Assembly (NCBI RefSeq): GCF_964204645.1
Contig: NC_134025.1
Location: 21,618,299-21,682,298 of the forward strand
Direction of reading: 5' to 3'
Length of the DNA: 64,000 bases
From: Tubulanus polymorphus
Lineage: Eukaryota > Animalia > Nemertea
The translations under genes were made by a program, and so were the position numbers. The stretch's first letter is position 1. Every line of letters begins with the position of its first letter. A model generated the notes under the pieces. That model saw only the letters and a program-made list of their open reading frames with translations, was not told the origin of the DNA and did no database searches. Shown piece after piece: positions 33,842-58,100 of the stretch.

Positions 33842-34198
33842 ATGGATAATACAGGTGGTGGCCGTTTCCGTTTATTTACTAAAGAATCACTGGCCAGAAT
33901 TGAACAACGCATAGCGGAGCTCAAAGAGAAACAGATAGAAAAAGAACTCAGAGAAAAGGAATTAAAAGAGCAAAAAGAGCATGGCGCGCAAAAATCTCCG
34001 TCGGACGTACCAACGGAGGCGTTATCCGGATTCGAACATGATCATATTCACGATGAACATGAACACGAACATGCCCCGAAAGAGAACCCAAGTATGGAAG
34101 CGGGTAAAAAGTTGCCGCCATCGTTATCGGACTATTTTCCGCCTGAACTGGCGGGAAAACCCCTCGAAGACTTCGATGAATATTACGACGATAAGAGG
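33842..34198 (+). CDS. para: Nav1 coding exon 1 (N-terminus, [21 protein letters not shown]...[11 protein letters not shown])
   Basis: ATG in cccATGG context. Conserved FRxFTxESL and PLEDxDxYY motifs. Phase-0 GTAAGT donor at 34199. Confidence 0.93.
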
Positions 34199-37100
34199 GT
34201 AAGTTTAAGTGAATCATACTACAGACAAAATCGGTACCGGCGGCCAGCAGATGGTGCGAATTACAGTCGGTTTCAGAAGTGGCCTCGGTAGCTCAGAGTA
34301 CTCTGAGCTACCGAGGCCAAAATAATTTGTTTTCTCGCCCGATATATTTGTTTTCTTGCGTTAATATTTGTTTTTTCGCTATAAAATTTGTTTTCAGATT
34401 TTTCAAGTTCGAATCTCGCCCAAAATATTTGTTTTTTCGCATCAATATTTGTTTGGCGGGACGAGAAAACGTAATGCCGTTGCTTTTCGCTTTCGGTACT
34501 CAGTGACAAGTGGGTTCGAGTCCTGCTAGCTGCGTACAGTGCGGACAACACTTCAAAGGCCGCCCCATCGTGAGGTTTTCAAAATAGAAATATTACCAGA
34601 AAATACGAGCTTCCAATTCAACATCTTTATATAGACTTTTCTTATTGTGTCTGGAATATATTTTCATTAGATTTGTTGCGTTGAATTCGCATACACTTCT
34701 ATGATTGTAGAAAGCCGATTAAATTGCTTGCAAACCCGTGGATCTTACTGGAATCCTCGATTGTGATGTGTAACATTGGTGATTGACGAACATACTTTTT
34801 AAACTATTGACCACTTTTAAAATGTGATGCGCGTGTCTTCTCTGTGGAATATAGTATTGGATTAATCGTATCATTCATCAATATAATAATTTTCCAATTT
34901 CCGGTAGACTTTAGGGTGCGATTGAAAGTGTTGTTTCCTTGAACACTAACATCCCTGGAGATATACGTTCATCATTCCATCGCTTAATGACATCTAAGAT
35001 AATAGATCTAATAATATATACGTATAATCGTATTGACTCAATCAAAATCCCATCTTATGAGATAACACGGTTAATGCCCACTTATGAATAACCTTAAACC
35101 TCATACCCGCACTTGTACTCGATACTTGTCTGGAAGTCATAATACGATGAACCTAGGGGTTCTTGGTGAGGCTTTAATGTTCTGCAGCAATATTGAATGC
35201 AGATTGGGGTTCTTCAAGACATTAAGGTTCTTGACAAGAACCTTAAACTGGTTAACATTGTCAATTAAGAATTTAGTAGACCTGCCTCAGGTAATATAGT
35301 ATAGCCGATGATTAAAGCCGATTTTCTATGTGGTGTAGGTCATAATGCAAAACACTAGCCACCGCGCAAAGGTTCGCATCCAGACTTATTACTCCGATGT
35401 CCGTATTGCTATGAGTCTCAAAATCCGACCATCTTTCTCTCGCCCCTTCAACCGACATAGTGAAATGTACAACCACGCTCGCCTCTCGGTCATAAATCGA
35501 CATGAATGCATTCATATAATTTTGGTTACGCGCGCACACCACCGATAGACACGCGATTCCAGATAACTTAAGTGTCATGTAATGACTGTATTGCCGCATA
35601 AAACTGTCTTCAACATGATAGGAAATTGTTTATTTCCCGTCAGTCAACTTGCAATACCCAGCCGACGACATTGGCATAAAAACCTGAAATGTCTTCATAA
35701 GCAAGCGCTACGTATACGGCAGCCTGACACTGTTTGCTAGACGCGCTTCGTTCGATAACACCAGTCATGTTCTGCTAAATTGCTATTTAAAGTAGCCAAG
35801 CCTTATTACAAGAACACATCGCATTCCGATAAGACAATGCAGGTCATCGACACGAGTCGGGCAAAAGCAATTTCAGGTAGGCTAATCATGCCGTCCTTGA
35901 CGGCAGTACGCGCTCACCACATCATCGAATGGCGAATGAATAAGCCAACTCAGCTGGAAAATGATGTCTGGCTTAGCGCGTAGATGCGCTGGCGGAAAAC
36001 CTACATTTAATACAAATGGTACGCGATTGATATTGAATAGAACTCGGGATAACTACGTGAATAATGCTTCATTCCTCATTTTAAGGCGACTTTCCTACGT
36101 CAAATCAAAAATAAGCCACGACTAAATACACAAAATGTCAGTTCGTTCGTCACGAATGGTAAATATCTGTCTGCAGTTTCAGTCTCTGCAATCGATGAAA
36201 CGAGATAATTTCTCGGCGGTATAGAGTGACGTCAAAAGTCGCGATTTTCGCTGTTTACTTATCGATAATAGCGAGGTTTAAACTCATATCTATTCACACT
36301 CGGGATCATTTGGAAGAAATATGTATCAAAAATCGCGGGTAAGACCAACTCGCCGGTATAAATCAAATGGCGAATCGTTTAGATCGTCTCATAGATAAAG
36401 CGTTGTTCGATAAGGTTTTCGTTCTGTAAGAATCCTCGCCGTAAATGAGGCATCGCGGTGGATCGCTTTCGTGAAGATGGCGGCGGGCGTCGTGTATGTA
36501 TACGTTCTTCTTGTGCAATCAAAGAGCGAATATCAAATTACCGCCTGCGTTTTTTTTTCCGCGCGTGTCGTACCTTATTTTCCCGGCGTAGTCGCTATAC
36601 GGCGTTCCGCGACTCGGGGCGTTCATTAGCAATTATTTCGCAATTGTTTTTTGCTCGTGTCAATAATAACGACGGCTCCTTAATGCCTAGAAGTGAGTCT
36701 GACGACACTGCATATAAACGACCGTGTAGGCAAACATTAAAAAACAATATTCCAACCGTTGTTATGTACGTTAATCAGTTCGAAATCTTAACAATATCGA
36801 CAATCATCCTTGTGAAAATGAAAAAGGATATATCGCTTATATGGCAGGACGGAAACGAACAAGAAAACTTACTTGAAAGTTTATTGACGCCTTGAAAAAG
36901 AATCAATGAAGTTTATCTGAATTTCCATATATCAACAAATGAATTGATTTGAATTGACCGGCAACCAGTCTAACCCGAATATTTGAGATGACGTGGTAGA
37001 CTGGTTGCTGGACTCTATTTCAATAGACTGGTTAGATGCCGAATTATGTGCCGAGTGAATTCGCAGTCAGAATTTTTCAATTGAAACTGGTAACCAGTCT

Positions 37101-40100
37101 ATTCATGTTTTTTTTATGCCATTTTGACTGCGAATATTTCAGGTGGTGCAGAATTCGCCAGGCAAACCATCTAACGACGTAGTCACTCACACAATATTCT
37201 AATTCATTATCAAAATTGCATGAACAATTATCCAATCGAAAATAAGGGTCATAAACTTGATCAATTACGAAATAAACGCCAATTTTCAGAATTGTAATTG
37301 TTATTTTGTAACGTCAATATTGACGTAGTGCACATTGACTCACACAATGCTTATTTAAAACACCAATATTGATGACGTAATGCACATCGTCTAACTCAGT
37401 ATCCCCCAAATAACGCATAGTAAATATCAATGTATGAAAATGTTATTGTAACGGTTTTTATGACGTCAAAAAAATTGTGTTGCGGTCTTTACGACAATAA
37501 GAACCTAGTGTATATATGCATAGAACTATAAGCGAAAGGGAAAGCCAACTCCGTGACGTCACTATACATTGTTTATTGCCACCGGTGAGGGCGCAGAACA
37601 AACCACAAGATTACTAGCGGTGCCTAGCGGATTTTTGAGGAGTCGGCCTTCCCTTTCGCTTATAGTTCTATGATATATGTAAGCTATACGTAGGCTGAAC
37701 AAAGAATGCCGCGTAGCAGCCGATTGGAAGTCATTACTGTAATATAGACGCTAGGCTAGTATTTGATTCAATCAAAAATGTGATCGGATTATCCTTTCAG
37801 TGAAAACTCGGCTAGATTATCGAAGCTATTTGATTTCGACGACTCTCGCCAATAAACGATCAAAATTAGAAAAAGAAACGCGATGTCCCCGGCGCGTTCG
37901 TTTGTGTGTTCGTCTGCGGGGGTCGAGTTCATTTTGCCTGATAAGATTACGGTTGGAAATCGTGTGCTGAACGTCAACACAAGCATATCCGCACGCTCGA
38001 TCTGTTATTACGTCTGAATCGATGATTCCAGAATTAGGCAGCGCTGCGCATTCGATATTCGCGACTGTATTAGCCAGTTCTGTAGATCGAAGCGTTTCCC
38101 ACGAAACCCTTTTAATACTAGTGACTGGCACGAACGGCCTACGGATATGCCTTCAGATACAGTACAAATTTTTCAAGATACTTATCAAACATTTTATATA
38201 ATAATCAAAGCGAATAGTAGATTTTTGCATTCCATTCGTCGATTTTGGTTTCAAATGTACTTGTCGTAGGCCGCTCGTAAACAGCCATTTATTACGGAGG
38301 GTAGCAGTAATCTATGGTGCCTCCGGGGTTAAAACTGCATCGTAAACTTGTTGTCGCTGGCTTGTAAGACCGACAGTCTGAGTCTTAATGGGGTTTTTCA
38401 TAGATGATATACATGTATGTCACCAGGTACAAAACAAGGCAATTATTACATGCTAATGTAACGATAAATCTCCCGACTATTCCCTTACTGTGTTATTAGC
38501 CTGCATCCAATCAGTCAGAAAGCGGTCTCCCCTGTAAAAGTAATGTTAAGATATTCATCACGTCGAACATATGCTATATATTGCAGCGAATGCTGAAGAT
38601 TTCGGGAGAGGTGCGTGCGTTATATTTGCCCCTTCTTTCTTTTTGCAGACATTCGTTGTTGTATCGAAGGACAAGACAATCTTCCGGTTTAGCGCCACAT
38701 CTGGAATGTTTTGCCTCACACCACAGAATATCATAAGACGGGCAGCGATATATGTTTTAGTCCATCCATATCCTTTTATTGAAAAACGAAATTCATCGTT
38801 TTTCCGGGTACATGTATTATGTTCTTTCTAAAGGCCGCAGTGCCCACACTACCGATTTCGTCAGTTCGCTTGGCCGAGTCATTAGGCTAAAAAATTGTAA
38901 ATACCTGGTTTCTCCTTTCTGCCGAGCCTAAAAGTTGATCCAATCGGCTGCCTATCTACCAAGTACAATACGCTTTTTTCTTTTAAATCATGATCAAGCT
39001 AACAATAACAGGCGACCCGGTAGTTATATTATAAACTGATTACAAATTTCATTGCAGTTTACAGAATGCTCCGGCCGATTATGCGAAACAAGGTATCATT
39101 TTTAGCTTCATGTAGCCGGTGATCCGAAAAAAATCGGGAAAGTGTGCGCCGTCGGATGCCTGGGTCGGATGATATGAAATATGACTACGACTACTGGTCG
39201 TAAAGGTGTGGCGGTGATCAGCCCGCAAAAAACGAACCGATAGATAGCGAATCAAACGTATTCCGGTTTAGGAATAGCAATTCCGGATTACAAATCTTCT
39301 ACCTGCCTTCCATCAGGTTTACAGATCGTGCTATTCTGGAAGTGGTACAGGATGAAATCTGGTCAAAAGGAAAGCGCTATTGAAAAGTATTCCCGAATCG
39401 AGAGACCACTCGAAACTTGCCTTATCTACAGAAGTCGCTTGATTGTACTTCATAGTGTGATCAGGCTTGGAGTAAATCAGTGCGTGATTTCTCCAAGGAT
39501 CATGCTACTAGATGATAGCGAAGGGGGTGTGTCGTATAGGTATGCACGGAACAAACCAACTCGGGCTCGCCGGCCATCGCCGGTGCACTGTCTATCAGAG
39601 TATATACCTTTCAACACGCCATTACGGATATTATCCATTTTCACTATTCCCAATACGTGCATCATTCTATATCAAATGTTCGATTTCATGGTGTCATTTC
39701 GAACGGCTAGGTGTTCTTCTTGCTTCCATGACAAAGTGATTTATTTTCTAGAATGTGATCAGAGAACGGTGTGATATATAGATGCGTGTTAGTGCATGCT
39801 GAGTGTCTGTGTTTTAAGAAGTCTTACACATTACGTATATATAAGTAGTTGGGGAGGGGGTGGTTCAAGACGGTACCATACCCGTTAAAACATATAGAAA
39901 TTAGCCAAAGCCTGACAAATGCACATACGAATTACTTTCAATTAAAGGAGATTATTATGACAGAGTTCGAGGGCGTCAATATGATTTCTCGTTCCTCAAC
40001 ATTACATGCGAGCTGTGGCATAGTACGTAACCAGCTTATTCCTCGTGACAGAGAAAATCAGTTATTTTAAGACGATTGCTCCATGGGACACAGGCGAACT

Positions 40101-43100
40101 ATTTTGTGACAAGAATTGCCTCCGTGAAATTACACAAAGCGGCTTATTCTTGATTTATAACGTTATATTCTAATGACGTTTTGATTCGTCAAATATTTCG
40201 TTTTTATATAAAAATTATGTTTTTTGTCTTATGTTATTCGCGCGTAGGCGGTTGCCGATAGAGTACCTCGAAGATATTAGTGCGTGTAGATTTCAGTCAC
40301 AACAAGGGTGGATCTAAATTTCTACTAGAATTTCCATGAAACCTGTCGCGACTGTTTTCGATCATTATACAGTAGACTTAGCTCAAGTCGGATCTTTTGG
40401 GACCGTAAAAATGTGTCCGACTTGAGGGATATCCCATCTTATTCATTCCATCCGATCTCATTCATTCTGTTGGATCTTATTCATTCCATTAAAAGTGTCC
40501 CAAAAATATTTTAAAAAGCGTCCGAGTTGAACGGTTATCGGGTTGATCAGATCCGACTTGGCCGATTACACGGGACAAAATTTTCGACAAGGTTGGCGCT
40601 ACTTAATCAGAAAACTAACTTGAAAGTTGATTGACGCCCTGAAAAATAGCACATTGCTTGATTATGTCGACAATATTCAATATGATATAATAGTAAGGAT
40701 TAGTAAAGTTATTTTGAATTTGAATATATCGAAAATTGAATTGAATTGACCGGCAACCAGTCTAGCCCCGATATATCGATGCATAGTGCACATACATCCT
40801 CTACAAATAATAATCATCAAATTTATCAGTAAATATGAGTTTTAAGATATGTTTAGTTACAAAATTCACAGTTGTAATTGTTCTTTCCAAACGCCAAGAT
40901 TGATGACGTAGTGCACATCGACTCACAGAGAATCCCTTAAATAACGCATACTAGGTATCAGTGAATATAAACATTATTGAAACGGTTTTTACGGCGTCAA
41001 AAATCATCGTAACTAAACATATAGCCACTAATCGGTTAGCTCTCGATTAAGACGTGATCTTTTCAGGGCGTCATAGCAAGACATGCGATGCATTTCGATA
41101 TAGTTTTCGTTCTAGATTTTTGTTTCACTGCATGGTGTGGTGTGTGTGTGTTTCAATGTCTGTTAGTTGATCAATGACGTCATGTGCACCGTGTATAATG
41201 AAACAAATATACGAAAAGAAAGAACCGTGCGTGCGTGCAACGTAATTCTTATCCGGACCTCATCGAGATCGAGGTGGACGGAGCAACCGTGTTGTGGTTT
41301 TTAGTCTTTAGTATCAGCTGTGCGTTCCTTAACCCCATGTTCACATTTTTTAGTTTATTTGTCATGCTGACTATTCTTGTCAACTGTGTGTTCATGGCAA
41401 TGCGGGAGAAATCCAATTCCATGACCAGTAAGATATCTGAGTAAGTAGGACCCCGAAACCTTTCATCAAAACGTCTTGGGTACTGGGAAATTGCGCACTT
41501 TCTGGATTTTGATCTTAATTCCTTTCGGGCTGATTATTCATGAGTTACAGATAAATCTCATTTCTGGAGATATTCCGTAACCAGCGAAGGGATTATCAAC
41601 ACCCGAGTCGAACATCAGAAAGTGCTATGTCCTACCCGGCTTTTTAGAATATTTCATCATTTTTGAAATTTTTTCATTCTTTTTGCACGATTTTGAGTGT
41701 CGCCTTATAAAGCAGTTTCGATTTTCAGGGTTCTTGCCTTGCTCATTTGTGAACACTGGCGAGGCCGCAATAGGAAAAAAATCAACAATCGAATCCCAGC
41801 CAATGGTCGATCCGATTGGATCCCGTTGCGGTTAGCCATCAACCACGGGCTTACAATCAACACAAATGAGCAATTTTTTTCAGATTTTTCATGCACAATT
41901 TCATATTTGCTTCGAATAGCGTCGTTTAACATTTTTTCTAGTTTTCATCTGATGTATTTTTCTGATCACACAAAGTATTCTCCGGTGAGAGTCTAGCATT
42001 TTGTGCCAGAGTTCAGTCGTTTAACCTTGGGATCGACGGCGATGGATTTAGCTTCTGAATCGTTCACCTTTTTTCTAAATCGTCTTGCCTTTTCTTCGCT
42101 TTCCTTAACTTTTTTACATTATTTAGTTTGTCTGTTATGGTGACTATTCTTGTGAACTGTGCTTTTATGGCCATGAGGGAATCCCCAAATGATAAAACTA
42201 GCAAGATAGCCGAGTAAGTAATCTATATTTAGCGGCATCGGGAAAACGTGGTTTATTTCCTATTCGTGCGTGTCGAAAATGATTGACATTTTTTTTCGAG
42301 ATCATATTCGAACTATCTTCGACCGTCATCGTGTAGATATAAGGTTTTATCGGTTCATCGCATCTATAGGAAAACCACGTTTAAAGATGCTGCGCGCGTA
42401 GTGATGAAGTAATTAAGTGACAGTTTCGCATTTACAAGTATTAGTGCATTAGTCTTTATTAAGCTGGGCGTAGGTCGTCCTTGCGACTGCCAGCTACGCG
42501 TTGCGACGCGGTGTTGCAAAGACCCGTCGCAAGTCGCAGCGAGTCGCACACGCGCTACTTTCTGTACCCACGCTTGCCAGGGTTTGATTGCCTCCCGCCG
42601 TAGCCCACGCCAACACTAACCCTGGCCGCAGACCCTTCATTGGTGTATTACACGGCCTAGTTTCGGGCGGACGGGTTGCCCATCAGCAGCCACCTATATA
42701 TCTAGACAATCATGCGTTGCATTGATAGTACGAATCTGTGAATAACAAGGCATCTGACTGAGACTGGTGGCCGTTATGGACGGCAGGCTGTCCGCCTAAG
42801 AAGTCTTGGGCGGTGTAATAGACCAATGAAGGGTCTGTGGCTCGGGTTTATGTGTGCTACGACGGGAGACAATCAAACCATGGCAAGCGAGGATGTACTT
42901 TCTGAAACGCGCCAGTTGTAACCGATCGCGTCGCGTCGCTGTCGACCTACACCTACCTCATTGCAATCCGTGTGCGTCAAAGCACCCAACTCTAAAACAC
43001 TATATAGTATACGTCCCTTTGGACTGCGCTGTCGTAGTAGTAGCCTATAGGCTAATATGATATGAAACTCGTCGTGTATACGTCCGATATGTATGTACAT

Positions 43101-46100
43101 AAATTTGAAAACCAATGGTAACGGGAAATCAGTGAAATTAGCATGGCCGTTTCATTTTTATGTATGGAATTATCGGTTAAAGCGGATTTTTTTCGGGGGT
43201 TTTCAATCGCGTTGCACCCGCTTTGCTTTCAGTTTTTGCAAGTTTTCATCATTGTTGTTTTGAGAATTTGACTTCGTTATGATTTTCATATCGTGATTGT
43301 ATAAGCAAATCGATTGAAAAAATATGTATCACTTTTCAATAGGATCTCTGTCTTGAATTCTAAAGCGCACAACACGTTTTTACAGCGTTTCCTCATCTTC
43401 GAATCCACAACTTAGAAGTCAATTTCGTCTATATAGCCGATGTATATAACGTATGGTGATAATTCATAATGTTCGATTAAAATCAGCGGGTGCCTAAACT
43501 GCGATATTGTCATGAAGACAAACTTTTTAGACATGCATTATCAAATTATATTATGTTATATTCAACAACCAAATACTGTCAAATGTGATCATCCCTAGCG
43601 CACAAAACACGAAATTAAGCAAATAGATTTATGGTTCGAAAATGCCTTTAGAATGCTCGTAGATTTGTTGTTTGAAAATTTAGAATCAGCTGTTTGTCCT
43701 AATTGATAGAATGAATTTCTACTGTGTCCTATGTTGTTTCAGGCCCGTATTTACGGCAATTTACACTGTAGAAGCCTCGACTAAAATCCTTGCGAGAGGT
43801 GTCATTTTGGCGGAATTCACGTATTTACGGGATGCATGGAACTGGCTTGATTTTGCGGTCATTTCTTTAGCGTAAGTTTGAAATTATGTGAAAACGATTG
43901 AGTATTCCGAATATTTTTTGCCAACTGCGGTCGCGTGATCATCTCACCTCATGGCGAAGGTTAACGGGTTCGAATCTTCAAGGTCATGATAGGGTTGTTT
44001 AGTGGTCGTTGGTTGAAAGACAAACGAAAAATAACATGTTTCTTTTATCAATGAATATATCGGAGAATTTTCTTCTCGCCTTTTGTTGCAGATATTTGAT
44101 GTTTCTTGTTAAGAACTTAGGCAACCTTTCGGCACTTCGTACATTTAGGGTGCTTAGAGCACTGAAGACAGTAGCTGTAGTACCGGGTATGTATACGGTC
44201 TATACTCTAGGGCCGATAACGCTCAGAAAACATATCCGATAGTTTCGATTGACGAATGATATCAAATTTACTGAACCTCGTGTTTTTGTTGATCTTATCC
44301 GGTATCTGTTTTTAATGACGGGCGCATTCTATAGAAGTCGTCATTACGCAGACAATCCTATTTACTCGCGAAATCTTGCATAGAATAAAATATCAAACAA
44401 GTATTCTAGGGGTTGTCCATAAAAAATGGCCACACAAAATTGCAAAATTTTGACCCCCTCCCCCATATCCACTGAATGCCAACGTTGTACCTACCCCCTT
44501 CCCCCTGTCCATCGGACAAACAAGCAATTAAAGACATCAGGTATCCATTCATGCAAAGTAATGTTTTTTTTAATTTCACTTAATCGTCTATCATACGCTC
44601 TGGACTACAGTTTGTTATTCCAGACGTCATCTTGAAAACATATTTGAACTATTTCTCTTCTTATTCGAAATTGAATAACCCGAATGAACACATCCAAACA
44701 ACCACCCTCCCCTTTGTCCACAAAATTCCAAAGTTCCCAATCCCCTCCCTCGACCTTAGACGTCTTTTATGGACAGCCCCTTATACGATTACTATTCTCA
44801 ATCAGGAGTTTCGTACTTCGTCGTATATATAATCTGTCTCCTGAACAAAATCTAGATCAGTGGAGGGTCGGCGAAACGCATCGATTCCTGTGATGTATAA
44901 TGACTCAGATTACAAAAGAATTCGCTTAAAAATAAAATCAAAGGCGATCGTTGACTTTATTCTCGTTTATTTCAAACAATATTCAGGATTGAAAACTATC
45001 GTTGGCGCCTTGATGGAAGCCGTGCGCCGGTTACGCGATGTGATGATCCTGACTTGTTTCGTCTTGTCTATATTTGCATTGATCGGCTTACAAATTTATT
45101 CGGGTAGTTTATTACAAAAGTGTGTCAGAGATCCACCGGAGGAATATAACATAACGAAGGAGAACGACACCGATCCTGGCTGGCTAGCTTGGATCGAAGA
45201 TGAAAGTAAGTTACATATCAAACCCTTTTTCTTTTAACTCATCAAAATGTTTGATATATTGCGCCTTAACTTGCAACCATGGACATCAGGGGTGGATCCA
45301 GCGATTTGAGCAGAGGGGGTCAAGCGTAGTGTCTTCCCATTCAATGAAAAACGTATTCTCCTGAAATTTGACGATCAAACTTACAAAATGTGTGCATTAT
45401 CCACCTACAGTTATTTCTGGCAGACGCAGAAACAGCAGTCGATAAAAATTTGAATTGTGGTTAGTTTCATATTGATTGATATATCACAATCAGAAAATAT
45501 CGGAATACAGAGAAGGGAGTCGAGACCTCGTAACCCCCCCCCCCCTGAATCCGCCCCCGAATATGATGTTTTATTTCTTACTCACAAAATAGTTCTATTC
45601 CAGTAAACATGAAAACCGTGATAGAAATTGTCCATATATTTACCTTGTTTTTAGGTAACTATTACGAATACAATGGAGCCTATACGGGATTCATGGTCTG
45701 TGATCATGCTAAAAATGGCGGGTAAGGTGTAAGGCTGTATTTTGCATACTTCTGAAATTCATGCCAGTATACATGTCGAGATATCAAATAAAATGTATTC
45801 TTTTTCAAATATAGCGACCTTTTGGCAATGATAGTGTACTTGCGTTTTTGCTTGTACGTAATATAAGTGAAATTCCCGAACTTTTATGTTTCACATATGT
45901 GTATCCTATCTAAGATGAAATACTTAATCAAATAGAAAATATTGAATACGATAGCAAAGGTGATATACGTTCTTTTTCCGTTTAGATTGTGTCCACCTGA
46001 CTACACGTGCGTTAGAAACGTCGGCGAGAACCCAAATTTTGGATATACAAATTTTGATAATTTTGGCTGGGCTCTGCTCAGTTCCTTCAGACTCATGACG

Positions 46101-49100
46101 CAAGATTATTGGGAAAACCTCTATCAATTAGTGAGTATGGCGTTTAATTCTTTCTAATTGCGGGGAGAAAAATATTCAATAGAAAATAAAGCATCACACG
46201 CTTGTTCTATTAGTCGATAGACTCCATCCATTAAAGATGGAATGTGCAACAGTTTTCTGATAATCATCTCGACTCCTGTTCCCCTCGAATAACTATTTTT
46301 TAACTGATTTATAAAAGGGGATTGAGACCTCGTCAACCGGCCGTAAGCTTTTGTAAACTAAAACGCTAACGCACACTACGATTGCGTAACAAATACCAGG
46401 CCCGTGATCGAATAAAATTTTCAAAGCGCCTTTCAAAAAGTCAGTGTCGGAAAAATTCGGGCCAAGATTTTTCAACATTTGGATACAATTTCTTTGTTTT
46501 GGGAAAAGGTAAACTGTAAAGAGTGAAACTGTTTAAGCATTCCATAAAAGTTTTCACTTACTTGTAAATATGTTATTTTCTAATATTGGCGATATATATT
46601 ATAAACTTATAACCCAATAAAAATTGTTAATGAGACGTTGTTAAAGTGAAGGTTATCGAATAAGATCATAAGATCTCTCCTTTTTCGATAGGAAAGTGCC
46701 CATTTTTACGTTGAAAAATGCCCTATCTCTTGAAATGGAACTGCCCCTCAAAAAATCTCGGCAATGTATGCATGCGTTGTTTCTGAACTGTATCTAACCT
46801 CATCGAAATTTACAGATAATTCGTGCGAATGGGCCGTGGCATATGTTGTTCTTCATGCTTGTTATATTCCTGGGATCGTTCTACCTCGTCAATTTGATTT
46901 TGGCCATTGTCGCCATGTCCTACGACGAACAACAAAAGCAGGACAAAGCGGACGAAGAGGCGGAGGAGTTGCTGCGAAAGGTATGATACACAAAGTCATA
47001 GTCTGCGCAAAACTGTGTAGGCAACTGGTTTGCGAACGGCCGGATTGATTGATTCCCGATGCTTAGACTAGTCGCGTCGCAATCATCGTTATATTGTTAA
47101 TCGCTAAGAAATAAATAGTATCTGCTATTCTGAAATATTTCGATATCATAGTCGGCCATATTTACTTTAATATTTTTCTATATACGTATGTTTTATTCTC
47201 TCTAAGAACCTTTCATTACTTTTTGCATGCTCGAATATACTTTCAGTATACATTTGTTTATGCAATCTATCCTGATTTTGAAGAGTATGTTGTGCGATGA
47301 CTTTAAATCCTTTCCTTAATTGTCGTAAATCCTTCTCATATAGCTTGTATATATTGCTTTCTCGACGAGGAACTGATTAGACTTTGTCCAAAGATTTTAC
47401 GGTCATGCCTTTGACGGTGTTAAGGGCCGCATCGCTTTTCCATTTTCTTCATTTATCAGCTGTGCTTCGTTGATTATCTCTCAGAATATTGAGAACCTGA
47501 TTTTAGCATGCTCACCTTTAGATCTTTCCAGCAAAGACGGCCGATTCCGCGCCCTATATGAAATCTCTTATCACAATGGCGACGTTTATCAAATTCCACT
47601 AACGCTCGACGCGCTTGGCATTGCGAAACCCCTGAAACGCGAAACGAAGACTTTTCTTCTTCGAAACAGCGAAACAAGCTTCGCGCTTCGGCACTTAGTA
47701 AAGACAATAGGGTAAAATGCCGTTTGTTCCTTCGTGTTTCGCTGTTTCGCACTATTTTGTGTGGGGCTTTAATCGAGCAATTTGTTCGTGCATTATTTGA
47801 TATTAAGTGATGCCGCAAAGACCACCATCTCTTAACAAGCAAAAACCCACAGTTGATATTTCATAAGTTTGTTGTCTGACAGTTTCTGAGTTTATTCTAA
47901 ATCCATCATCAGAGAAACCAAAATGTTATAATGATGATATAATCATTACGTCATTTTGGTTTCTCTCTGATGATGGAGTTCAGATAAACTCCAAGCTGGC
48001 AGACAATAATCGCCTTAAATATCACTCGCGGGTTTTTACATGTTTACTCTAAATACGGAGATCAATATCAGTCCTTCACTTACGACCATCCTTTCTGGAA
48101 GGATCTAATAACTATTTTATCTATAGTTTTCGTGCCGGATATTCATATTTAGAACTTGTGATACAAGACGATGGCTGGTAATCGAGCAAACGCTCGGTTT
48201 GTTAGGTTTTTATGATTTCGAATTATTTTTCTGCTATTAAATTTGGCTTTTGTGCCTTGATCCCGTCGCTTAGGATTCCTTCTATTCGTTGGCGGAGTCT
48301 GGATTCGGTGGTACAGAGAATGTATGTAGGTCCTCCATGTTGGTTCATGTTTGATATATATACGTAGCCACCACGAACATAGTCACCAAAATATCGAACA
48401 TTTATCGATCGATGTTTATATTTCGTATGTTTCCGACGTCCTCGAATGCCAGTAACATTTTCCGACGAAATCGAACACAAAATATGGCAATCGGGGACGC
48501 ATAAATCGGATCGAAAATTCGTGATGAATTTTTGATTGGAACACGCGGTATTTGTATTTTTTTGATGGTTGTTGCGAGATTGTGTTTCTGACCGATTTCA
48601 TTTATTGCTTTTGATTAGTGTTCCAAAATTTGAAACAGTTATAATACGACGTACGTGTAATAAAAAGAAAAGCATTCGTTAGAAATTAAAGCATGATTGA
48701 CTTTGATTTTGTACTCGTTAAGTTAGCTTTGGTTTTAATCTCTTGTTTAAAACGGTTACGTTTTCAACTTCCCAACTTTTATTTTCGTTTATCGACCAAG
48801 TTGCATTTCTTATGTCGTTTCCCCCCTGATCACCGTCCACTTATAGCTGAATCGTACACGGGAAGACACGAAACCGAACCGAGACTTTCACTTCACTCAA
48901 AATAGCACGTCGAACATCCTCACCTTTTTCACGGATCACTATACGATGCATACTCATCACTTAATCACGCATAACGCATGATGAGAATTCTTATTCATTC
49001 AAAGATTATTCGCATTAATATACGTCTCTAAGTCTAAGTCTATACGGTTAAGTTGATGATATTGATATAATGATCCAACACTGTGTTTGGTACAATGACT

Positions 49101-52100
49101 ACTTCTAAGTGGAATAAGATTAAATCTATCTATCATATTTTGGTGCGAGTGTCATTAAAGACGACCGAAACCCGCCCAGGCGAATAAGTAATAATTCCGA
49201 TTCTCCGCTTAACAGGAGGAAGAAGATCGTCGAGAACGCGAAGAGGCAATGGATGATCAGAAGAGTCCATCGGTCGGTTCCTGTACGAGCATAGAGCTGT
49301 ACTTGAGTCGGCAGAAGCCGGATCGAGAGGATAAAGAACGGATTAGTATTAAATCGGATTGTTACGGATCTCAGGATAAAACCAGACGTCGGCTGAGTGT
49401 TCTAAACGGCAAAGTGAAAAAAGTAAGTCGTTCACGGCCGTATTAATATTTCTTATCATTCGTATTTGATTACTCGCAGAATCGGCTTTTATTGTCTGTG
49501 AATTATTGCTATTCTGGTTTTGCAGCCAAGCCTCAGTCTTCCAGGATCGCCGTTTGCGCCTAGAAGAGGCAGTCGAGGCAGTCAGTTCAGTTGGAAAAGA
49601 CCGAAACAGCATCACCATCCTCACCTACACAGAGGCGCCACGGATAGGACGCCGCTTGTTTTACCTTATATAGAAAACATAAACTTACCGTACGCTGACG
49701 ATTCAAATGCTGTGACGCCTTCGTCAGAAGAACTATGCACATTACAACATTCTCACCCCAACTTTCTGCAGGCACGACGTGCCAGCTTTTCATCCCACCA
49801 TAGCCGAGTATCCCACCTAGAAACGAACGGTCGAGCACCACCAGGTTCGCGTAGGAGTAGCTTCTCGTCGCAAAGAAGCAAACTATCTGCTCGACACTCT
49901 TATAGTTCACCTGCTGATGCCCCGAGTAAAACTAAAGAACTAGCAGCTCGGAGCAATAAAAACCGCGAAAATCGGGCAACGCATCCACTTTTACCTGAAG
50001 TAATCGTAGATAAACCGAAATCCGACGATAATGTAAGTTTAAGGGTAACTATCATATCTTCTCTTCTCGATTGACTACTTTGTGAGTACCCAGTGTTTCT
50101 TTTCGAGTACAAGGAGTCCTCGAACATTACTAAAGTAGTCGCGATTTCCTTTTCCCGCTTGTCATTGCTGTTAACTTAGATATTTCGATACTGGTACCTT
50201 CTTGTTCGTATATTCGACATTATCAAACTATGATCTTAACTCGATGGATTCGCCATGGACATTTTAGAGTCCACGAGCTAACTGAATGAATGCGCAGTTG
50301 ACATATAGATTAAAGAAGTCCCGAAATATAAGTATTTCAATAATATTTTTGAGCTAACAGCAGTCACTTGAGCTAACTTCTCGCTTCGTAGTCATAGCCT
50401 ATGCATTCAGTGTATTCATGATCAAAAATGAAATTTTACCTGTTTTATAACGTTAAGTAGAAACTGATAAAGTAAAGGGGTAAATGGGGTTTATCGAGCT
50501 TTCTTGAGAAAAACCGGACTCGTGACATTCTTTGACTGAAGCATATCGAACTATCATTGTCCTTTTACGTCAATGAATTATTCTATGTACCATAGATACA
50601 ACGAGACAAGGTCGACTATTCTATTTTGACGCACGAGCTCGTGCGTCACATAAAATAGTTAACCTTTACTAACCTGTACTACTCGCCTCATTGTATTCAT
50701 TATAGGTTTAACACGGCTCCTCTACGAATCTATGTACCAGTATTTCGTTGTATTTCCATCTTACTATGTAATTGAGAAAAAATAACTTGTTCACACTGTA
50801 AATTAGTGAGCGCATTTCCATCGACCGATGTATGCATGATATCACGTTTGCACGTTTCAGGAGTCTTCCAGTAGTGGGTCTGAATGTGATACGGTTAAGC
50901 AGAAACTGTTCGCGGACAACCCATTCATATGCCGAACCCCTAGCCAAACAGTCGTTGATATGAAAGGTTAGTTTTTCCTGACCCAGGAACTTCGGCGAGC
51001 ATCCTATATGAGACCACCGGTTTTAATTATATTGATTGGTTTCGTGTGATTTCAATCATTTGACCAACTGACCAAAAAACTATGACATCCGTTTTCTCCC
51101 CGTCCTAATTCAGTCGTTTAAAATCGAACGTAATAAAGGAAACAACATGGGCGTCACCAGACGATCCCCTTTTTAAACCAAAGTTCCGCATTTTTAAATC
51201 AAAAGATTTTGGTTTTTTCACTTTCCGGAAATTTCATAAATATTTTATCTCAAAAGTTCCGGAAATCGTCTCTCTCAAGCTTCGAATTTCAAAAATTAAG
51301 ACTATCTAAGAACATTGAAACATTCAGAAATGCTGGTTTGTCTTCGGCGCTTGGTGGATACGGTGCAATGTATGGAATATAGTTCTGCGTCTAATAATAT
51401 TTTACCCCTCCTTATAAAAATCCTGGTGACGTCCTTGTGAACAAGTTCGTAAAGAAGTGAATAAGAAGGAAAAGATGTAATTAAATCGTAGAATCTGTCT
51501 ATCAAGTTCCAGTATAATTGGAGGTGTAACATTTCATTATCTCTGGTACGATGCATCGAAATAGCCTGTTTCTTACATTCAATAAACCATATGTCTGATT
51601 TGTTAAGTCCGTAGTTTTCTGATCTATAAACTAAGTGACTTGTCCTTTGCGTGGTTGGTCGATAACCAATGTTTTTTCCGATCGTGGCCTGGAATCTCAT
51701 AAATTGCTTTCAAATGTCGTTCAATTAATGTGTTTTGCTTTGCATATGTAAACAATTTTCCTTTTCATGTTACAGATGTGATGGTTCTCAAAGATCTTAT
51801 TGATCACGCAGGAAAACGAAGGAGTACGTATATATACAAGATTGAGTATGAAACAAAGCCCTGTCGTCGCTTAGAACTCGCCATCGTTCTAGCCGCAGAG
51901 ATGAAATTATTGCGAACATTATCATTCCGTGAAGCATTTTTGAACTAAAAACGAGCTAAAGAACTCGAGCCATTGATGACACGGTTTTCAAGTTGTGAAT
52001 GCCAGGGGCAGATCCAGACGGGAGCACAAGGTGGCACGTGCTCCCGCAGTTTTACCGTGCCCTTTAGAAATTGCGATTGCAATATTTTTCTGCCTGCTAC

Positions 52101-55100
52101 TAACAAAACAGCGGTCCGCAGCGCAATTCTTAGCTTATGTTATCTAGAAATTGTATGAAAATGCATTGAAATTTTGAAATTTTGCAGACCCTTGTTTTGG
52201 CTGCGCGGATACTTAACTTAAAAGGAGTCAAATCTTAACTTACAACTGTGGAACTGGGTCCAGAATTGTAAAGATAAATACGGAAATGTGTGCATTTCTA
52301 TCCGAATAATATGTAAATGCTTTTTTATGTCTTTTTATGTCTTAGGTTTTATGAAAGAAGAAGGAATGGATAGAAAAGCATATTACAAAGCGAAAGCAAT
52401 CCATTGGTTTTGTACCTGGGACGTTCCAGACTGGTTTAAAACGGTGGAAAAAATATGCCAGTTTATCATACTGGATGCGTTTGCTGAAGTGTTTATCATT
52501 CTGTGTATTTTAGTTAACACTCTTTTTATGGCCTTGGATAAATATCCAATGGACAAAGACTTCGAACGGTCATTGCAAATAGGAAATTACGTAAGTACTA
52601 ACAATCCGGCGATCGGAATTTAATCAGGGTGGCCACTGACCTGGAAAACTCAGAGTATCGGAAACATCTAGAAGAAATCAGAGAAAACTCAGGGAGTTGG
52701 ACAAATTTATCGTTATCGACCATGCGTTTCTTATGAATATGTAACTCATTAAAGGTGAATGAATTGTAAGATTTTAAACCTAGAAACTCATCGGACTTAC
52801 TCGGGGAAAAATAAGGGAAAACTCAGGAGATTTGTAAATGAGCGGAAAGTGACCACCCTGTGAATAAGTAATTCCCTCTTTCATTCAGAGCGGGTATGAT
52901 GATGATTATGATCCGTGACCCGTTAACCAGTAGATCACGATATTTTACGTTGCTTAGATAGCGCTATGAACTGTGAAGTTTTTCGCGTTTCACTTGCAGG
53001 TGTTCACCGGGATATTTGCCGCTGAAGCGACTCTCAAAATCATAGCGTTGAATCCGAAGAACTATTTCACGGACGGATGGAACATTTTCGATAGTATAAT
53101 CGTCTTTCTCAGCTTCCTTGAACTAACGCTAGAAGGTGTACAAGGCTTGTCTGTTCTTCGTACTTTTCGATTGGTGAGTGGTGGAACCTTCCCTCGCCTT
53201 ATATTATTTTATTGAGTTGAAACGAATAGTACTTTATAGGTTAACTAGCTTATTAAACGCACGAGCTTTCGCTTCTAGTGTATAGTAGCTTCGTCAGGTG
53301 AATGATGAAGTACCATATATACATGTATGCGAAAGTGATAGCTCGTGCGACTAATAAACTAGTTAACCTTTAAAGTGTTCATCTCGTTATATCTATTCGA
53401 CACTAGGTTAACACGGCTTTTCTACAAATCTTAATTGTCTTGAAATTGGCAATATTGTATAAGGTGATGTTTTTTACCTTGATTTATACTACGTAATCAC
53501 CTATTCCTTCTTCATTCGTAATTTCAGTTGCGTGTTTTCAAATTGGCGAAATCCTGGCAAACATTAAATCTACTCATGGGAATCATTGCACGGACTATTG
53601 GTGCATTAGGAAACCTTACTTTTGTGCTTGGGATTATTATTTTTATATTCGCTGTGGTCGGTATGCAATTATTCGGACAATTCTACGATAAGGAGGAAAA
53701 TTGGCCCGGTGGTGATATTCCGCGATGGAACTTTTGCGACTTCTTTCATTCTTTTATGATAGTATTTCGTGTGTTGTGTGGAGAGTGGATCGAATCTATG
53801 TGGAACTGTATGCGAGTAGTAGATCCTAGTTGGCCTTGCGTTCCATTTTTCTTGTTAACCATGGTCATAGGAAATTTAGTGGTACGTATCGACGTATTTC
53901 CCGGGAGCATCTTCTGCGCTTCGTATAACGCAACCCGTGTCATTAAGCTATTGACCCTATTGCAGTAGACTCCGCTCAAGTCGGATCTCTTGGGATCGTA
54001 AAAATGAGTCCGACTTCAGTGATATCCGAGTTGGATGTTATGTATTTCGTATAGTGTCACAAAAATATTTCAATAACATCCGAGTTGATCGGATCCGACT
54101 CGGGCGGAGTCTATTGCAGTAAATAAACGAAAGCCTGTCGAACATTTTCAGGTATTATACACTCATTAGATTTTCTCCGTATATATGAAAGAATCATTTT
54201 CAGGTGCTGAATTTGTTTCTTGCTTTGCTGTTGAGCTCGTTCGGCGCAGAGAGTCTTCAAGCATCTCAAAGTGCTGATGAACCGAACAAAATGCAAGAGG
54301 CTGCCGACCGTGTCAGTCGGTTCCTAAACTGGGCCAAGGTTAAGCTCAGCCAATGTTTCAAAGGAGTCATCAAGAAAAAACGAGCGATTCCGCCGTGCGA
54401 AGAGGACCATGTCACTAAAACTGAAAACGATATGATGTTGGACGGAGACGGCCCGATGAGAAATGGCAGATTATGCGATACGCAAGACTCGCCGGGAAAT
54501 GAAGATAGAAAGAGCTGTGGCTCAGCAAACAAAGAAAAGGTTTGTTCATTTATATTGCATGTGTACATACTTCCATATCCAGGAATAAAGACACTCTAAA
54601 TATTTGGATGGATATATGAAAGCTGTGGGTACTGGAGTGTGTAATGAGTAGTGTAGTGTGATCTGTGTGCATTTGTGGCCAGCACACAGATCACATTGTT
54701 CATTGGGGTTTGGTCCAGGACTCGCGAGATTTTCAACAACACGGAAATAACGTGTATCAAATGATGACTTGAATTGCATGACTACCTAACCACCCCTCAT
54801 TATTGTTGGAAAACTAAACGTTCGGCACTGACTAAAAATTAGTAATAACATTTTAGAAATGGCCAGAATTTTAACTTAGGTTCTATCTCATTTTTATTTT
54901 ACAATTGCGATTGGTATAATCTTTTTTAAACGGCCGTTAAGGCTTATATTGTGCCTTAAAACCCTATACAACTTATATTGTGCCTTAAAACCCTAACAGC
55001 CGAAATAATTGAAATGCACACACGATTTCTATCATTGAAAATTGAGAGAGTGGCCATGTTTGTGTTTGCTGCTTCGCGTAAATCCCGCTCGGTGGCGCAA

Positions 55101-58100
55101 CCGCGCGGAGTGGGGCCGATACGTCCAGCAGAACGTTACGGGGTTCATATCGGTCTTTAAAAGTCCTAAAAAGTACTTAAATGGGAATGAACTTGAACTT
55201 AAACTTTAATTTTATTGCTCCATATAATATACAGGTTACATAGGAAATGACAAGCAATAAAATATTAACATCATAACACAGGAGAAACAGTACAAAAGTG
55301 GACATACATTCATAATGGAGGAATAGAAAAACATTTGCAAATAAAATATGCGAAATGTAGAAAAAAATATAATACATATACAGCAAGGAAACTAAGTGGC
55401 GATACAATCAAGTGAATAGAACATAAAAGCATCAAAGTGTTGAACGGAGGGCAAATAAAGAGTTAACTAGGTTACTCACAAGGCTGGCAATTTCATATAG
55501 TCTCCATTGTTATATATAAGACATCAAAAATAAGAATTTATCATAAACACAATAAGACTCAAACTCTGTAAAACATACAAGTGAGGACAAAATAGAAACC
55601 CTGGCAGGATGAAGCGAGGGACACACGAGTAAAAAGTGGGATTCGTCCTCAACGACTTTATTAGCAGTACAGTTGAGGCAAAATCTTTCATTAGCTGGTA
55701 ACAATGGACGACAGTGACGCCCCGTCTCGATTCTAAGACGGTAGGAACCGAGACGCAGTTTGGAGAATTCGCGTCTTTTAAGGAAAGAGTTCGAAACTAT
55801 ATATTTTTTTAGTTCAAAACGTTTTTTAAAAAGTTTATAGGTTCTTAATTTGGGGTTGGAATTACTGTCGTTAACTTGAAGTAGCCACGATGAAGAATAT
55901 AAAAGATGCATTTTAGACTGAAGCACTGAAGGTAAATTCAAGGCATTGAATAACATGGAATGGTCTCTAAACTCCTTAAATCATTGCCATAGTCCTTGAA
56001 TGGCATCGCCTCACCACACGATTACAATTTGAAACTTTTGGTCACATTATATCAGGTGGGGTACATTGTTGGTATTGTTAGGTCCAGTACAGTAGTCTGA
56101 TGGATGAACCCAATGTAAGTTGGAAATCTTGAACATCTTATGAAAAAAGCCCTGGTATCGGGAGTCGAAAAGGTCCTTGAATCAGATCGTTATCACATTG
56201 CATCATTCAATTCATCACCTTTATTATGGTTGAGAACAAAGGGAACAAAGTATTTATAATGTATTAGATATCATAGATGCCATGGAAGTAGACAGTATTC
56301 ATTCTGCAAAGGTCTATCAATAACTGCATGAATCCTCTTTGCCATTTTGCCATTTCAGGAGGAACCTCCAACTAGACCAGCGAGTGTGGATTCACTATGC
56401 AAGTTGAAGAAATCCACCTCAAGGGATAGCGGGCAGTCAAGTAATGGTAAAAATGGAAATAGCGAAGGAAAGGATAGCAAGTCAACGGGCAAAGGCCGAG
56501 ACGATGTGGATTCAGATATTGAGGGCAGCATTGATGGTAAATCTGAAGAGAATAACGACGGAGAACCAAGAGAAGTCGAGGTTGTCTATGTTGCGTACCC
56601 CGATGACTGCTGTCCAAATATATGCGTACGAAAAATTCCGATTTGTACGACTTTCCTGCAAACAAAACCGGGCAAAGCATGGTGGAAAGTCCGCTGTTAT
56701 ATGTTCAAATTAGTCGAACACAAGTACTTCGAGATGTTCATTATCACCATGATTCTTCTCAGTAGTGTATCTTTAGTAAGTATGCGCTAATCGTTACCAA
56801 CATAGAAGGAAAGCATCACCCATTACTTAATACTGATATGGTTCAAAATAAAGACTGTGCAATCTGCGCAACTTTTTACCTAACATTAAAGTCAGTTGCA
56901 TCATCATTTTTGTCCCGAATCAGCCACCATAAAATATACCAACTATGTTCAGTTTATACTTATTGTCGAGATATAAGATTCATTAATAACTTCACTGTGT
57001 TATTTCATCTGTATATGTACAGGCCTTAGAAGACGTTAACCTTCCTGAAAGAAAAACATTGAAGGAAATCTTAGAGTATGCTGATAAATGCTACACGGTT
57101 ATATTTGTTATGGAGATGGTGATCAAGTGGTTGGCGTTTGGTTTCAAGAAATATTTCACTGACGCCTGGTGTTGGTTAGACTTCATCATTGTCGCTGTAA
57201 GTGTTGTACTAGCACTTGATACGTGTTTTCACGTTTTACGTTGGAGTAAAAGTATATATCTAGGCCTGGGGCTGGGTGTGGGTTCTATGGAACATGTGTC
57301 GGGAACAGTAGTTCTGGAAAGCTCTATTCTCTCTTAACAGTGCATTAGCATAATCTACTAATCTCAAAGCAGAAAACGTGTAGACAAATGATATCTAAGG
57401 TTAATTCGATTTTATTTAAAAGTAAAAGTAAGAACAATATTACTTTGACTGTTAACGAGATTTTATTCGAACTACGAGCTTTCGTTACTAGCGCATAGTC
57501 GCTTCATCAGGTAAAAGGGCTCATCATTACCCGATAAAGCTATTATATGCGCCAGTAATGAAAGCTCGTACTTCGAAAGAAAATCTAGTTAACTATCAAT
57601 GTAATAATTTTCGTCGCATTTACTGTTCCTCCACACGAGACAAGATTAGTTGTCAACTTGTCAATTCAGTGTACATGGGTTCGAATCCTCTAAAAGCTGA
57701 GTTTCCTGCTGAAGGCCTTTCCCCTGGAAACACGCCCTAAACTGCATTCTGTGCACAGGGAATTAAAGCATTGCAGGAGGCTTTCACGAGCTGGGGAGGG
57801 GTATCGGAGATGATCTCGGACCATTTTCGGACAATAATCCTAACTGTGCTCCAGTGATTTAATTCGCACTAACAACGATTCAAATATTTTGTAGATATCT
57901 ATCATAAGCATTGTTGCTAAGGTTGTCGGATTGGGAAATATCGGACCGTTTAAGGCCATGAGGACGCTACGTGCCTTACGACCTCTCAGAACAGTTTCCA
58001 GAATGGATGGCATGAGGGTAATTCTGTTTTAACTTTCAATGACACGATGAGCCTATCAGGATTCAGTTCCACTGTTGTGAGTCAGAGTTGAGCTCATTTT

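Follow-up and report, generated by a model that had tools for sequence, protein, structure and literature searches.

A duplicated exon 3 in the Nav1 gene of Tubulanus polymorphus, predicted to be mutually exclusive through U12/U2 incompatibility

The coding region of a para-like sodium channel gene, Nav1 of Tubulanus polymorphus (RefSeq XP_074640062.1), lies on the + strand at 33842..62700 of the 64 kb window, which is the whole stretch of DNA that was analysed. The whole protein was mapped exon by exon and the last exon is 100% identical to P0001. Exon 2 (38649..38767, + strand, placed by this mapping) ends in phase 2 directly before segment S1 of domain I (DI S1). It is followed by a single U12 AT-AC 5′ splice site, ATATCCTTT (38768..38776, + strand), which is an exact consensus and the sole + strand match to [AG]TATCCTT within the gene. 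Two paralogous 96 nt exons then share this donor, exon 3a (41345..41440, + strand), which carries the DI S1 helix and the S1-S2 loop and is absent from the RefSeq model, and exon 3b (42118..42213, + strand), the copy used by that model through the junction 38767-42118. The two are equal in phase and length, both intact and in the same open frame, and each is followed by GTAAGT (41441 and 42214).

Ahead of each copy there is a U12 branch point and an AC acceptor. On its + strand, the window contains the branch point TTCCTTAAC twice, at 41325 and 42101. In exon 3a (41325..41344, + strand) the AC is at 41343-44 and the branch A is 12 nt from the intron end, and in exon 3b (42101..42117, + strand) the AC is at 42116-17 and the branch A is 9 nt from the intron end. 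Both spacings fall within the range of about 8-15 nt for U12-type AT-AC introns. The 677 nt intron between the copies (41441..42117, + strand) is therefore a hybrid with ends of different spliceosome class, a U2 donor GTAAGT at its start and TTCCTTAAC with AC at its end. Its donor, that of exon 3a, scores 9.3 bits, within the 4.4-11.8 of the gene's real donors, one GC site apart. The intron after exon 3b (42214..43742, + strand) is an ordinary U2 intron, with a donor of 9.6 bits and a normal AG at 43742 of 10.7 bits, before exon 4 (43743..43871, + strand; DI S2-S3; exon mapping). All of these coordinates and signals, including the anatomy of the hybrid intron, had been given in the preliminary description of this DNA and were found again here. 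The pattern TTCCTTRAC-N5-12-AC is matched three times over the two strands, where 0.46 matches would be expected, and two of 100 shuffles also reach three, so that by itself the number of matches is weak evidence. Chance does not account for the position of two of them, exactly at the in-frame starts of paralogous exons.

Exons 3a and 3b are identical at 70 of 96 nt (73%), with agreement at 16 of 31 third codon positions and at 25 and 26 of the other two. When the 27 modelled exon pieces were compared with the exon-masked window, exon 3 was the sole duplicate (E 6e-11; next match E 0.015). The predicted proteins differ at eight of 31 residues, four on the variable face of S1, as assigned by a helical wheel calculation, and four in the outer S1-S2 loop. 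Under a codon model, omega between the copies is 0.11 (profile interval about 0.02-0.3; p=3e-5 against omega=1), a pairwise value that is compatible with a very recent loss of 3a, and dS is about 1.6 and does not fall below about 0.8 anywhere in the profile interval. The S1 part alone gives omega 0.12 (p=0.004), and a counting method gives pS 0.74 and pN 0.16. In a Nav S1 profile built from 46 distinct segments, 3a scores 64.0 and 3b 59.5, and only three natural segments reach the score of 3a. The two unusual residues are also found in natural orthologues: among 26 distinct U12 exon 3 contexts, position 1 is Phe in 18 and position 5 is Ser in seven. Sequence evolution thus supports purifying selection between the two copies and a function for both, and the unannotated 3a does not look dead.

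The AT-AC intron at DI S1 is ancient. Its position is kept in 18 of 27 complete animal loci, absent in eight and unclear in one, and the distance of the U12 branch point in orthologues is 9-15 nt (n=26). This is the same intron, in position and signals, as the U12 AT-AC intron reported to be conserved at DI S1 in Nav and Cav channels (PMC6259924). There it is known as constitutive with one acceptor (PMC6259924), whereas Tubulanus Nav1 has two. No exon 3 duplicate was seen in any of the 27 loci with exons 2-4 complete, nor in the 40 with exon 3 visible; the loci surveyed were the best 80 of 220 confirmed, were redundant, and included 40 without exon 3 in view. Likewise, annotated isoforms show no alternative exon 3 in 14 octopus-group rows (12 with S1), two of which differ at the junction residue only, in 10 Mercenaria rows (nine with S1) or in two Lineus rows. 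The exon 3 pair is known so far from one species, Tubulanus polymorphus.

Judging from this arrangement of splice signals, U12/U2 incompatibility is likely to be the lock that makes 3a and 3b mutually exclusive, since the intron that separates them starts like a major-type intron but ends like a minor-type one, and neither spliceosome is predicted to remove it. Exon 3 would have been duplicated in the Tubulanus lineage along with its U12 3′ end and its U2 donor. U11/U12 at 38768 would then pair with either branch point, the two being separated by 776 nt, and definition of the exon so chosen would be helped by U1 at its donor, which the major spliceosome would next connect to exon 4. Splicing of 3a to 3b would call for a GT donor to be used together with an AC acceptor, and a product that lacks both copies for an AT donor to be used together with an AG acceptor of the U2 type. 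AT-AC introns are described as poorly recognized by the U2 spliceosome whatever the context (PMC10853781), and AT-AG and GT-AC combinations as disfavoured, with a best branch distance of 11-13 nt (PMC3584512). In an SCN4A construct, the minor intron is reported to be enhanced by U1 at the downstream donor (PMC8034651). Splicing of U2 donors to U12 3′ ends is itself on record, in GT-AG cases (CENATAC, MAPK12; PMC8329584), a precedent which counts against a strict lock between 3a and 3b.

Other kinds of lock were considered and set aside. A steric block is not supported, as the 677 nt of the hybrid intron are far above the 50 nt limit in use (PMC5740500). RNA pairing is not supported either, there being no unusual fold near either exon (z 0.10 and -0.96) and no clear repeat of a shared partner. 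The products with 3a only, with 3b only, with both and with neither are all open frames; NMD therefore cannot enforce the exon choice, since joint inclusion and skipping stay in frame, as had been argued earlier from 96 being a multiple of three.

The alternatives to this lock concern the second copy itself, its use, or the tightness of the block. That one copy is an assembly artefact, with the other haplotype placed in tandem, is very improbable. Haplotype copies would be near-identical, flanks included, but the changes between these copies fall mostly at third codon positions, the stretch common to both is 108 nt only, and their 300 nt flanks are unrelated, with alignment scores of 18 and 20 against 18.4 and 18.8 for shuffled sequence; the dissimilar flanking introns had already been put forward against an artefact. 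It is also unlikely that 3a was functional for a long time and is now dead or almost unused, with splicing of 3b only. RefSeq, which lists a single protein (cluster of 1), has the 3b form only, and no 3a-type protein was found in protein searches. A 40-residue frame over 3a gave no match, although P0001 and P0003, which share several five-residue words with it, were also missed, so such negatives are weak. A search with the DI S1-S3 region against shorter proteins gave 41 matches, none named as nemertean, and one with 3a against 1.84 billion representative proteins gave one match, a moth protein, and no protein with the 3a loop. However, some other junctions of the RefSeq model are doubtful (33981-34070 and 51869), and the model may therefore rest partly on protein alignment. 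Branch-point spacing favours exon 3a, at 12 nt compared with 9 nt in 3b (orthologues 9-15 nt), and 3a also has an equally strong donor and a helix closer to the consensus. In simulated neutral decay of 0.3 substitutions per site, frame, similarity and signals were all retained in one of 20,000 runs, and at 0.5 or more in none of 20,000. For a dead 3a, a period of more than about 0.075 substitutions per site is improbable (P<0.05), although after one of 0.02 all features are still intact in about 56-70% of cases. Of the time that has passed since the duplication, only roughly the last 10-20% would be open to such a loss.

The third alternative keeps both exons in use but lets the lock leak. The major spliceosome would join the 3a donor to an AG within 3b, and exclusivity would come from regulators or from removal of misfolded two-helix channels. 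The preliminary description had held that neither spliceosome should remove the hybrid intron; the mismatch of its ends stands, but an in-frame U2 AG, 9 nt into exon 3b (42125..42126, + strand), had been missed. This AG at 42126 has a middling score of 6.1 bits, higher than six of the 24 real acceptors of Nav1 and among the best 4% when the 1504 AGs of the gene are ranked. It is preceded by a pyrimidine-rich stretch (0.80 over 40 nt), is 18 nt from the branch A and gives a product with an open frame, so that a U2 route to joint inclusion of 3a and 3b is possible on paper. Where minor splicing is weak, cryptic U2 sites near minor introns are reported to be common (PMC8329584, PMC6717393). However, the AG is a by-product of coding, as 21 of the 26 orthologous exons from single-copy genes also have it, although these genes are no control for a leak because they have no U2 donor just upstream. 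Two other AGs of the hybrid intron (41550 and 41647) have similar scores, so that a score of this size is not selective, and the acceptor of exon 4 is far stronger. A leak of this kind is considered improbable.

Under the preferred reading of a lock by spliceosome class, two versions of the Nav1 channel would result if both copies are used. A more tentative proposal, possible but doubtful, is that the minor spliceosome chooses between the two AT-AC acceptors, which lie 773 nt from each other, in a regulated way that depends on tissue or stage and is not backed up by a frameshift. The domain I voltage sensor would thereby be switched between two forms unlike in gating or in their response to toxins that bind the sensor. 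If true, this would be the first ion channel with isoforms picked by selection of a U12 3′ site, at the oldest Nav/Cav intron, and DI S1 with the S1-S2 loop would be a new site of Nav diversification by exon duplication. Alternative splicing of U12 introns is described as almost absent, and alternative U12 3′ sites as possible errors (PMC3584512), whereas in Nav1 two apparently selected, perfect AT-AC acceptors would compete for one donor. Tubulanus Nav1 is a homologue of SCN4A, which was used to show cross-exon help from U1 for a minor intron (PMC8034651), and could serve as a compact natural minigene for how U11/U12 selects a distant branch point and for whether spliceosome class alone separates in-frame exons. 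More exons of this kind may be hidden, because annotation pipelines miss them. A link to tetrodotoxin resistance was dropped, as the published nemertean changes are in the pore loops and not in S1 (PMC12732450).

Human SCN pairs are the nearest comparison by gene. As in the Tubulanus pair, a tandem exon duplication (5N/5A) diversifies the domain I voltage sensor, but the human exon is 92 nt, not a multiple of three. Human SCN 5N/5A exons lie between U2 introns. In the validated set, all 12 SCN rows are this S3-S4 exon and not S1 (Dataset EV4, PMC5740500). No U12/U2-incompatible exon pair in a Nav gene was found described in the literature searched, nor any Nav precedent for an exon pair at DI S1, in agreement with the preliminary description.

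By mechanism, the comparison is with exons 6a/6b of vertebrate JNK (MAPK8/9/10), where a U2-U12 hybrid intron was reported (PMC1874599). That this mechanism is known mainly from JNK, as had been stated, holds as to the precedent, but the opposite polarity of JNK had gone unmentioned and TMEM87A/B is a second published case. JNK and Tubulanus Nav1 share a tandem duplicate exon beside a minor intron, a hybrid intron between the copies and an exon length that is a multiple of three (72 nt and 96 nt). In JNK the hybrid combines a U12 5′ site with a U2 3′ end, and the major spliceosome therefore picks the acceptor; in Nav1, with a U2 5′ end and a U12 AC 3′ end, the minor spliceosome would have to pick between two acceptors. 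The JNK pair was seen in RNA, whereas the Nav1 pair is known here from DNA sequence. Exons 11/11a of TMEM87A/B are likewise equal-length mutually exclusive exons around a minor intron, reported as RNA-validated and tissue-specific and having the JNK polarity, of which Nav1 is the mirror image (PMC6717393, PMC8329584).

The polarity of Nav1 is probably shared by human MAPK14 (p38-alpha), which the preliminary description had left out. The start of its 80 nt mutually exclusive pair matches the end of the JNK exons in residue and phase (Dataset EV4, PMC5740500), the JNK minor intron is reported to follow the duplicated exon (PMC1874599), and MAPK14 has a U12 intron (PMC8883539); from these exon positions we infer that this intron precedes the pair. 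With 80 nt rather than the 96 nt of Nav1, exclusivity in MAPK14 is backed up by frameshift. No description of MAPK14 as an acceptor choice by the minor spliceosome was found in the literature, and the Nav1-type polarity may already have been published for one among five human U2/U12 clusters. The principle is known from JNK and TMEM87, there in the opposite polarity, and the Nav1 pair is a variant of it in one species.

On the + strand, a single U12 donor (ATATCCTTT, 38768) lies ahead of both copies of Nav1 exon 3, which are 96 nt each and open in one common frame (3a, 41345-41440; 3b, 42118-42213). The U12 branch points (TTCCTTAAC) are at 41325 and 42101, with no other occurrence on this strand of the window, the AC acceptors end at 41344 and 42117, a GTAAGT donor directly follows each copy, and an AG acceptor precedes exon 4 (43742). 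All of these elements, listed in the preliminary description, are present in the sequence. The branch-plus-AC pattern has three matches against 0.46 expected on both strands of the window, a count of modest weight by itself; two of these matches lie at the starts of in-frame paralogous exons, and both 3a and 3b can be matched to DI S1 in Nav channels of solved structure. The exon pair is a real feature. Two more U12-like donor motifs, at 1387 and 1752, lie well upstream of where Nav1 begins.

RefSeq XP_074640062.1, the Nav1 protein of the palaeonemertean Tubulanus polymorphus, matches the last exon at 100 % identity; it maps across 33842-62700 and takes 3b via the AT-AC junction 38767-42118. 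The cluster of this protein has one member, therefore 3a is unannotated in the protein collection searched. The model has two doubtful junctions away from exon 3 and is therefore not accepted as proof of a transcript. In exon 1, 30 His/Glu-rich codons are left out of the RefSeq protein by a 90-nt gap (33981-34070), whose ends are AT..AC and carry short direct repeats but which lacks U12 signals; it is probably an annotation artefact or deletion allele. At 51824-52345, the model relies on a very weak GC donor (51869, -8.4 bits); similarity to Lineus stops at a GTACGT at 51824, which may be the true donor, and the model may lack a small exon. When second copies were sought for the 27 modelled exon pieces in the exon-masked window, none was found except for exon 3.

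Two observations concern DIII. Vertebrate channels have Asp at the position after the outer-ring Met; in the Tubulanus pore loop (58741-58794) Val directly follows this Met, which may be relevant to tetrodotoxin sensitivity. The DIII pore exon, the site of intron 21 in vertebrate SCN4A, is 54 nt, and both flanking introns are GT-AG (58653-58992). SCN4A intron 21 is reported to be U2-type AT-AC (PMC2831892).

The two copies are identical at 70 of 96 nt, with 25/31 first, 26/31 second, and 16/31 third codon positions the same. The flanking introns had been described as dissimilar, and the 300-nt flanks indeed score at shuffle level. A codon model gives an omega of 0.11 (about 0.02-0.3; p=3e-5 against neutrality) and a dS of about 1.6 (at least about 0.8); a counting estimate gives a pS of 0.74, inflated by multi-hit codons, and 9 of the 19 degenerate codons encoding the same residue differ. 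Because one pair cannot place selection on a single branch, profile and decay tests were added. Against an S1 profile built from 46 distinct S1 segments, 3a scores 64.0, equalled or beaten by 3 natural segments, and 3b scores 59.5, equalled or beaten by 25; at S1 positions 8 and 15 the Lineus protein has the residues of 3a, unlike 3b. When 0.3 substitutions per site of neutral decay were simulated, 1 of 20,000 runs preserved the frame, the similarity, and every signal. On the assumption that shared or outgroup-matching residues are ancestral, P<0.05 applies to dead periods exceeding about 0.075 substitutions per site. The decay, profile, and codon tests argue that selection acted on 3a over most of the time since duplication; 3a may have been lost very recently, the sole alternative remaining after these tests. 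Both copies are very probably functional.

The predicted protein forms differ at 8 of 31 residues. Four differences are in S1 (positions 1, 5, 8, and 15), on an 80-degree arc of the variable helix face, which points away from the invariant Ile, Asn, Cys, and Met, a tightness matched by 2.7 % of random four-position sets. This face is probably lipid-exposed, and at three of the four positions the side chain is smaller in 3b. The remaining four differences lie in the outer S1-S2 loop, and here an Asp and a Pro are present in 3b but absent from 3a. A modest shift in gating, trafficking, or ligand binding between the predicted forms is plausible.

As the preliminary description had argued from exon length, the frame does not enforce a choice: exons 2-3a-4, 2-3b-4, 2-4, and 2-3a-3b-4 are all open, therefore NMD cannot sort the single, skip, and double products. 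Steric blocking is ruled out, since the hybrid intron between the copies (41441-42117) is 677 nt. No unusual RNA fold was found around 3a or 3b. The intron after 3b holds a long imperfect inverted repeat (42568-42892) that resembles a small foldback element; its 54- and 45-nt arms are 80-84 % complementary.

The likeliest mechanism, and a reasonably probable one, is predicted exclusion by spliceosome class. Mixed AT-AG and GT-AC termini are reported to be disfavoured, with a best branch distance of 11-13 nt (PMC3584512), AT-AC introns to be poorly recognized by the major spliceosome (PMC10853781), and a minor intron in an SCN4A construct to be enhanced by U1 at the downstream donor (PMC8034651). 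U11/U12 would couple the donor at 38768 to one of the two branch points, U1 on the chosen exon's donor would assist this pairing, and the major spliceosome would then finish the join to exon 4. The U2 donors of 3a and 3b are strong (9.3 and 9.6 bits, from a matrix of 24 Tubulanus Nav1 introns). Branch spacing is a typical 12 nt for 3a and 9 nt for 3b, the shortest seen (shared by 1 of 26 orthologues from the best 80 of 220 loci), and the pyrimidine tract is richer for 3b (0.80 vs 0.68 for 3a); these differences could set the balance. Exclusion would leak if U2 splicing joined the 3a donor to the AG inside 3b (42125-42126), giving a 3a-3b product that stays open. This AG has a pyrimidine tract upstream and a distance of 18 nt to the branch A, and at 6.1 bits exceeds 6 of the 24 true acceptors; GT-AG cases are reported in which U2 donors reach U12 3′ ends (PMC8329584). 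An AG at +8/+9 is present in both copies as a by-product of Phe-Ser codons, and 21 of 26 orthologues from the best 80 of 220 loci have it.

A metagenome scan with exon 4 yielded the best 80 of 220 confirmed animal Nav loci. Among these 80, exon 3 is in view in 40 loci, single copy every time. In the 27 with exons 2-4 complete, 18 have the AT-AC intron at the identical base, 8 do not have this intron, 1 is ambiguous, and no exon 3 duplicate was found. The scanned loci are redundant, with 26 distinct U12 contexts, and the Tubulanus S1-S2 loop occurs in none of them. The AT-AC intron is already known from Nav and Cav genes as their minor intron at DI S1 (PMC6259924). By our own count the loop is 12 residues in both Tubulanus copies, without equal among the proteins compared, and 19 in Lineus; no second exon 3 appears among the isoforms annotated for octopus, Mercenaria, and Lineus. 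Exon 3 was presumably duplicated within the Tubulanus line or near relatives. In the DIII-DIV linker exon, a pair of substitutions spaced 17 residues from each other distinguishes two Lineus longissimus Nav1 isoforms (P0003 and P0121) and hints at a mutually exclusive pair there; the Tubulanus window has one copy of this exon. A predicted channel fragment of Chilo suppressalis (P0164, CAH0401392.1; 272 residues) has three tandem S1-like repeats, which reflect either a separate duplication around a DI S1 exon or an error in the gene model.

The preliminary description knew of no earlier account, and the literature searched, which covers few subscription papers, likewise describes no Nav gene in which the DI S1 exon is duplicated; a text search of two nemertean Nav1 papers (PMC8472881, PMC12732450) found neither 'splic' nor 'exon' in the text available. 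Regulated use and a functional difference between the forms, if true, would raise the weight of the finding. Published spliceosome-incompatibility pairs are JNK 6a/6b (PMC1874599) and TMEM87A/B (PMC6717393, PMC8329584), both with a hybrid of U12 donor and U2 acceptor. The likeness to JNK drawn earlier holds for the working principle, but not for hybrid polarity, which is the mirror image of JNK and of TMEM87A/B. A human survey that screened introns on both cluster sides reports five U2/U12-incompatible clusters (PMC5740500); in its Dataset EV4, MAPK14 exons begin where JNK exons end, and a U12 intron is reported for MAPK14 (PMC8883539), therefore p38-alpha probably shares the Tubulanus polarity. 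All 12 SCN rows of Dataset EV4 represent the S3-S4 exon, whereas the Tubulanus duplicate is the S1 exon. The incompatibility principle is already known; new here is the mirror polarity with AT-AC ends and without frameshift back-up, and Tubulanus Nav1, in one species, is the first candidate for such a pair in a Nav channel.
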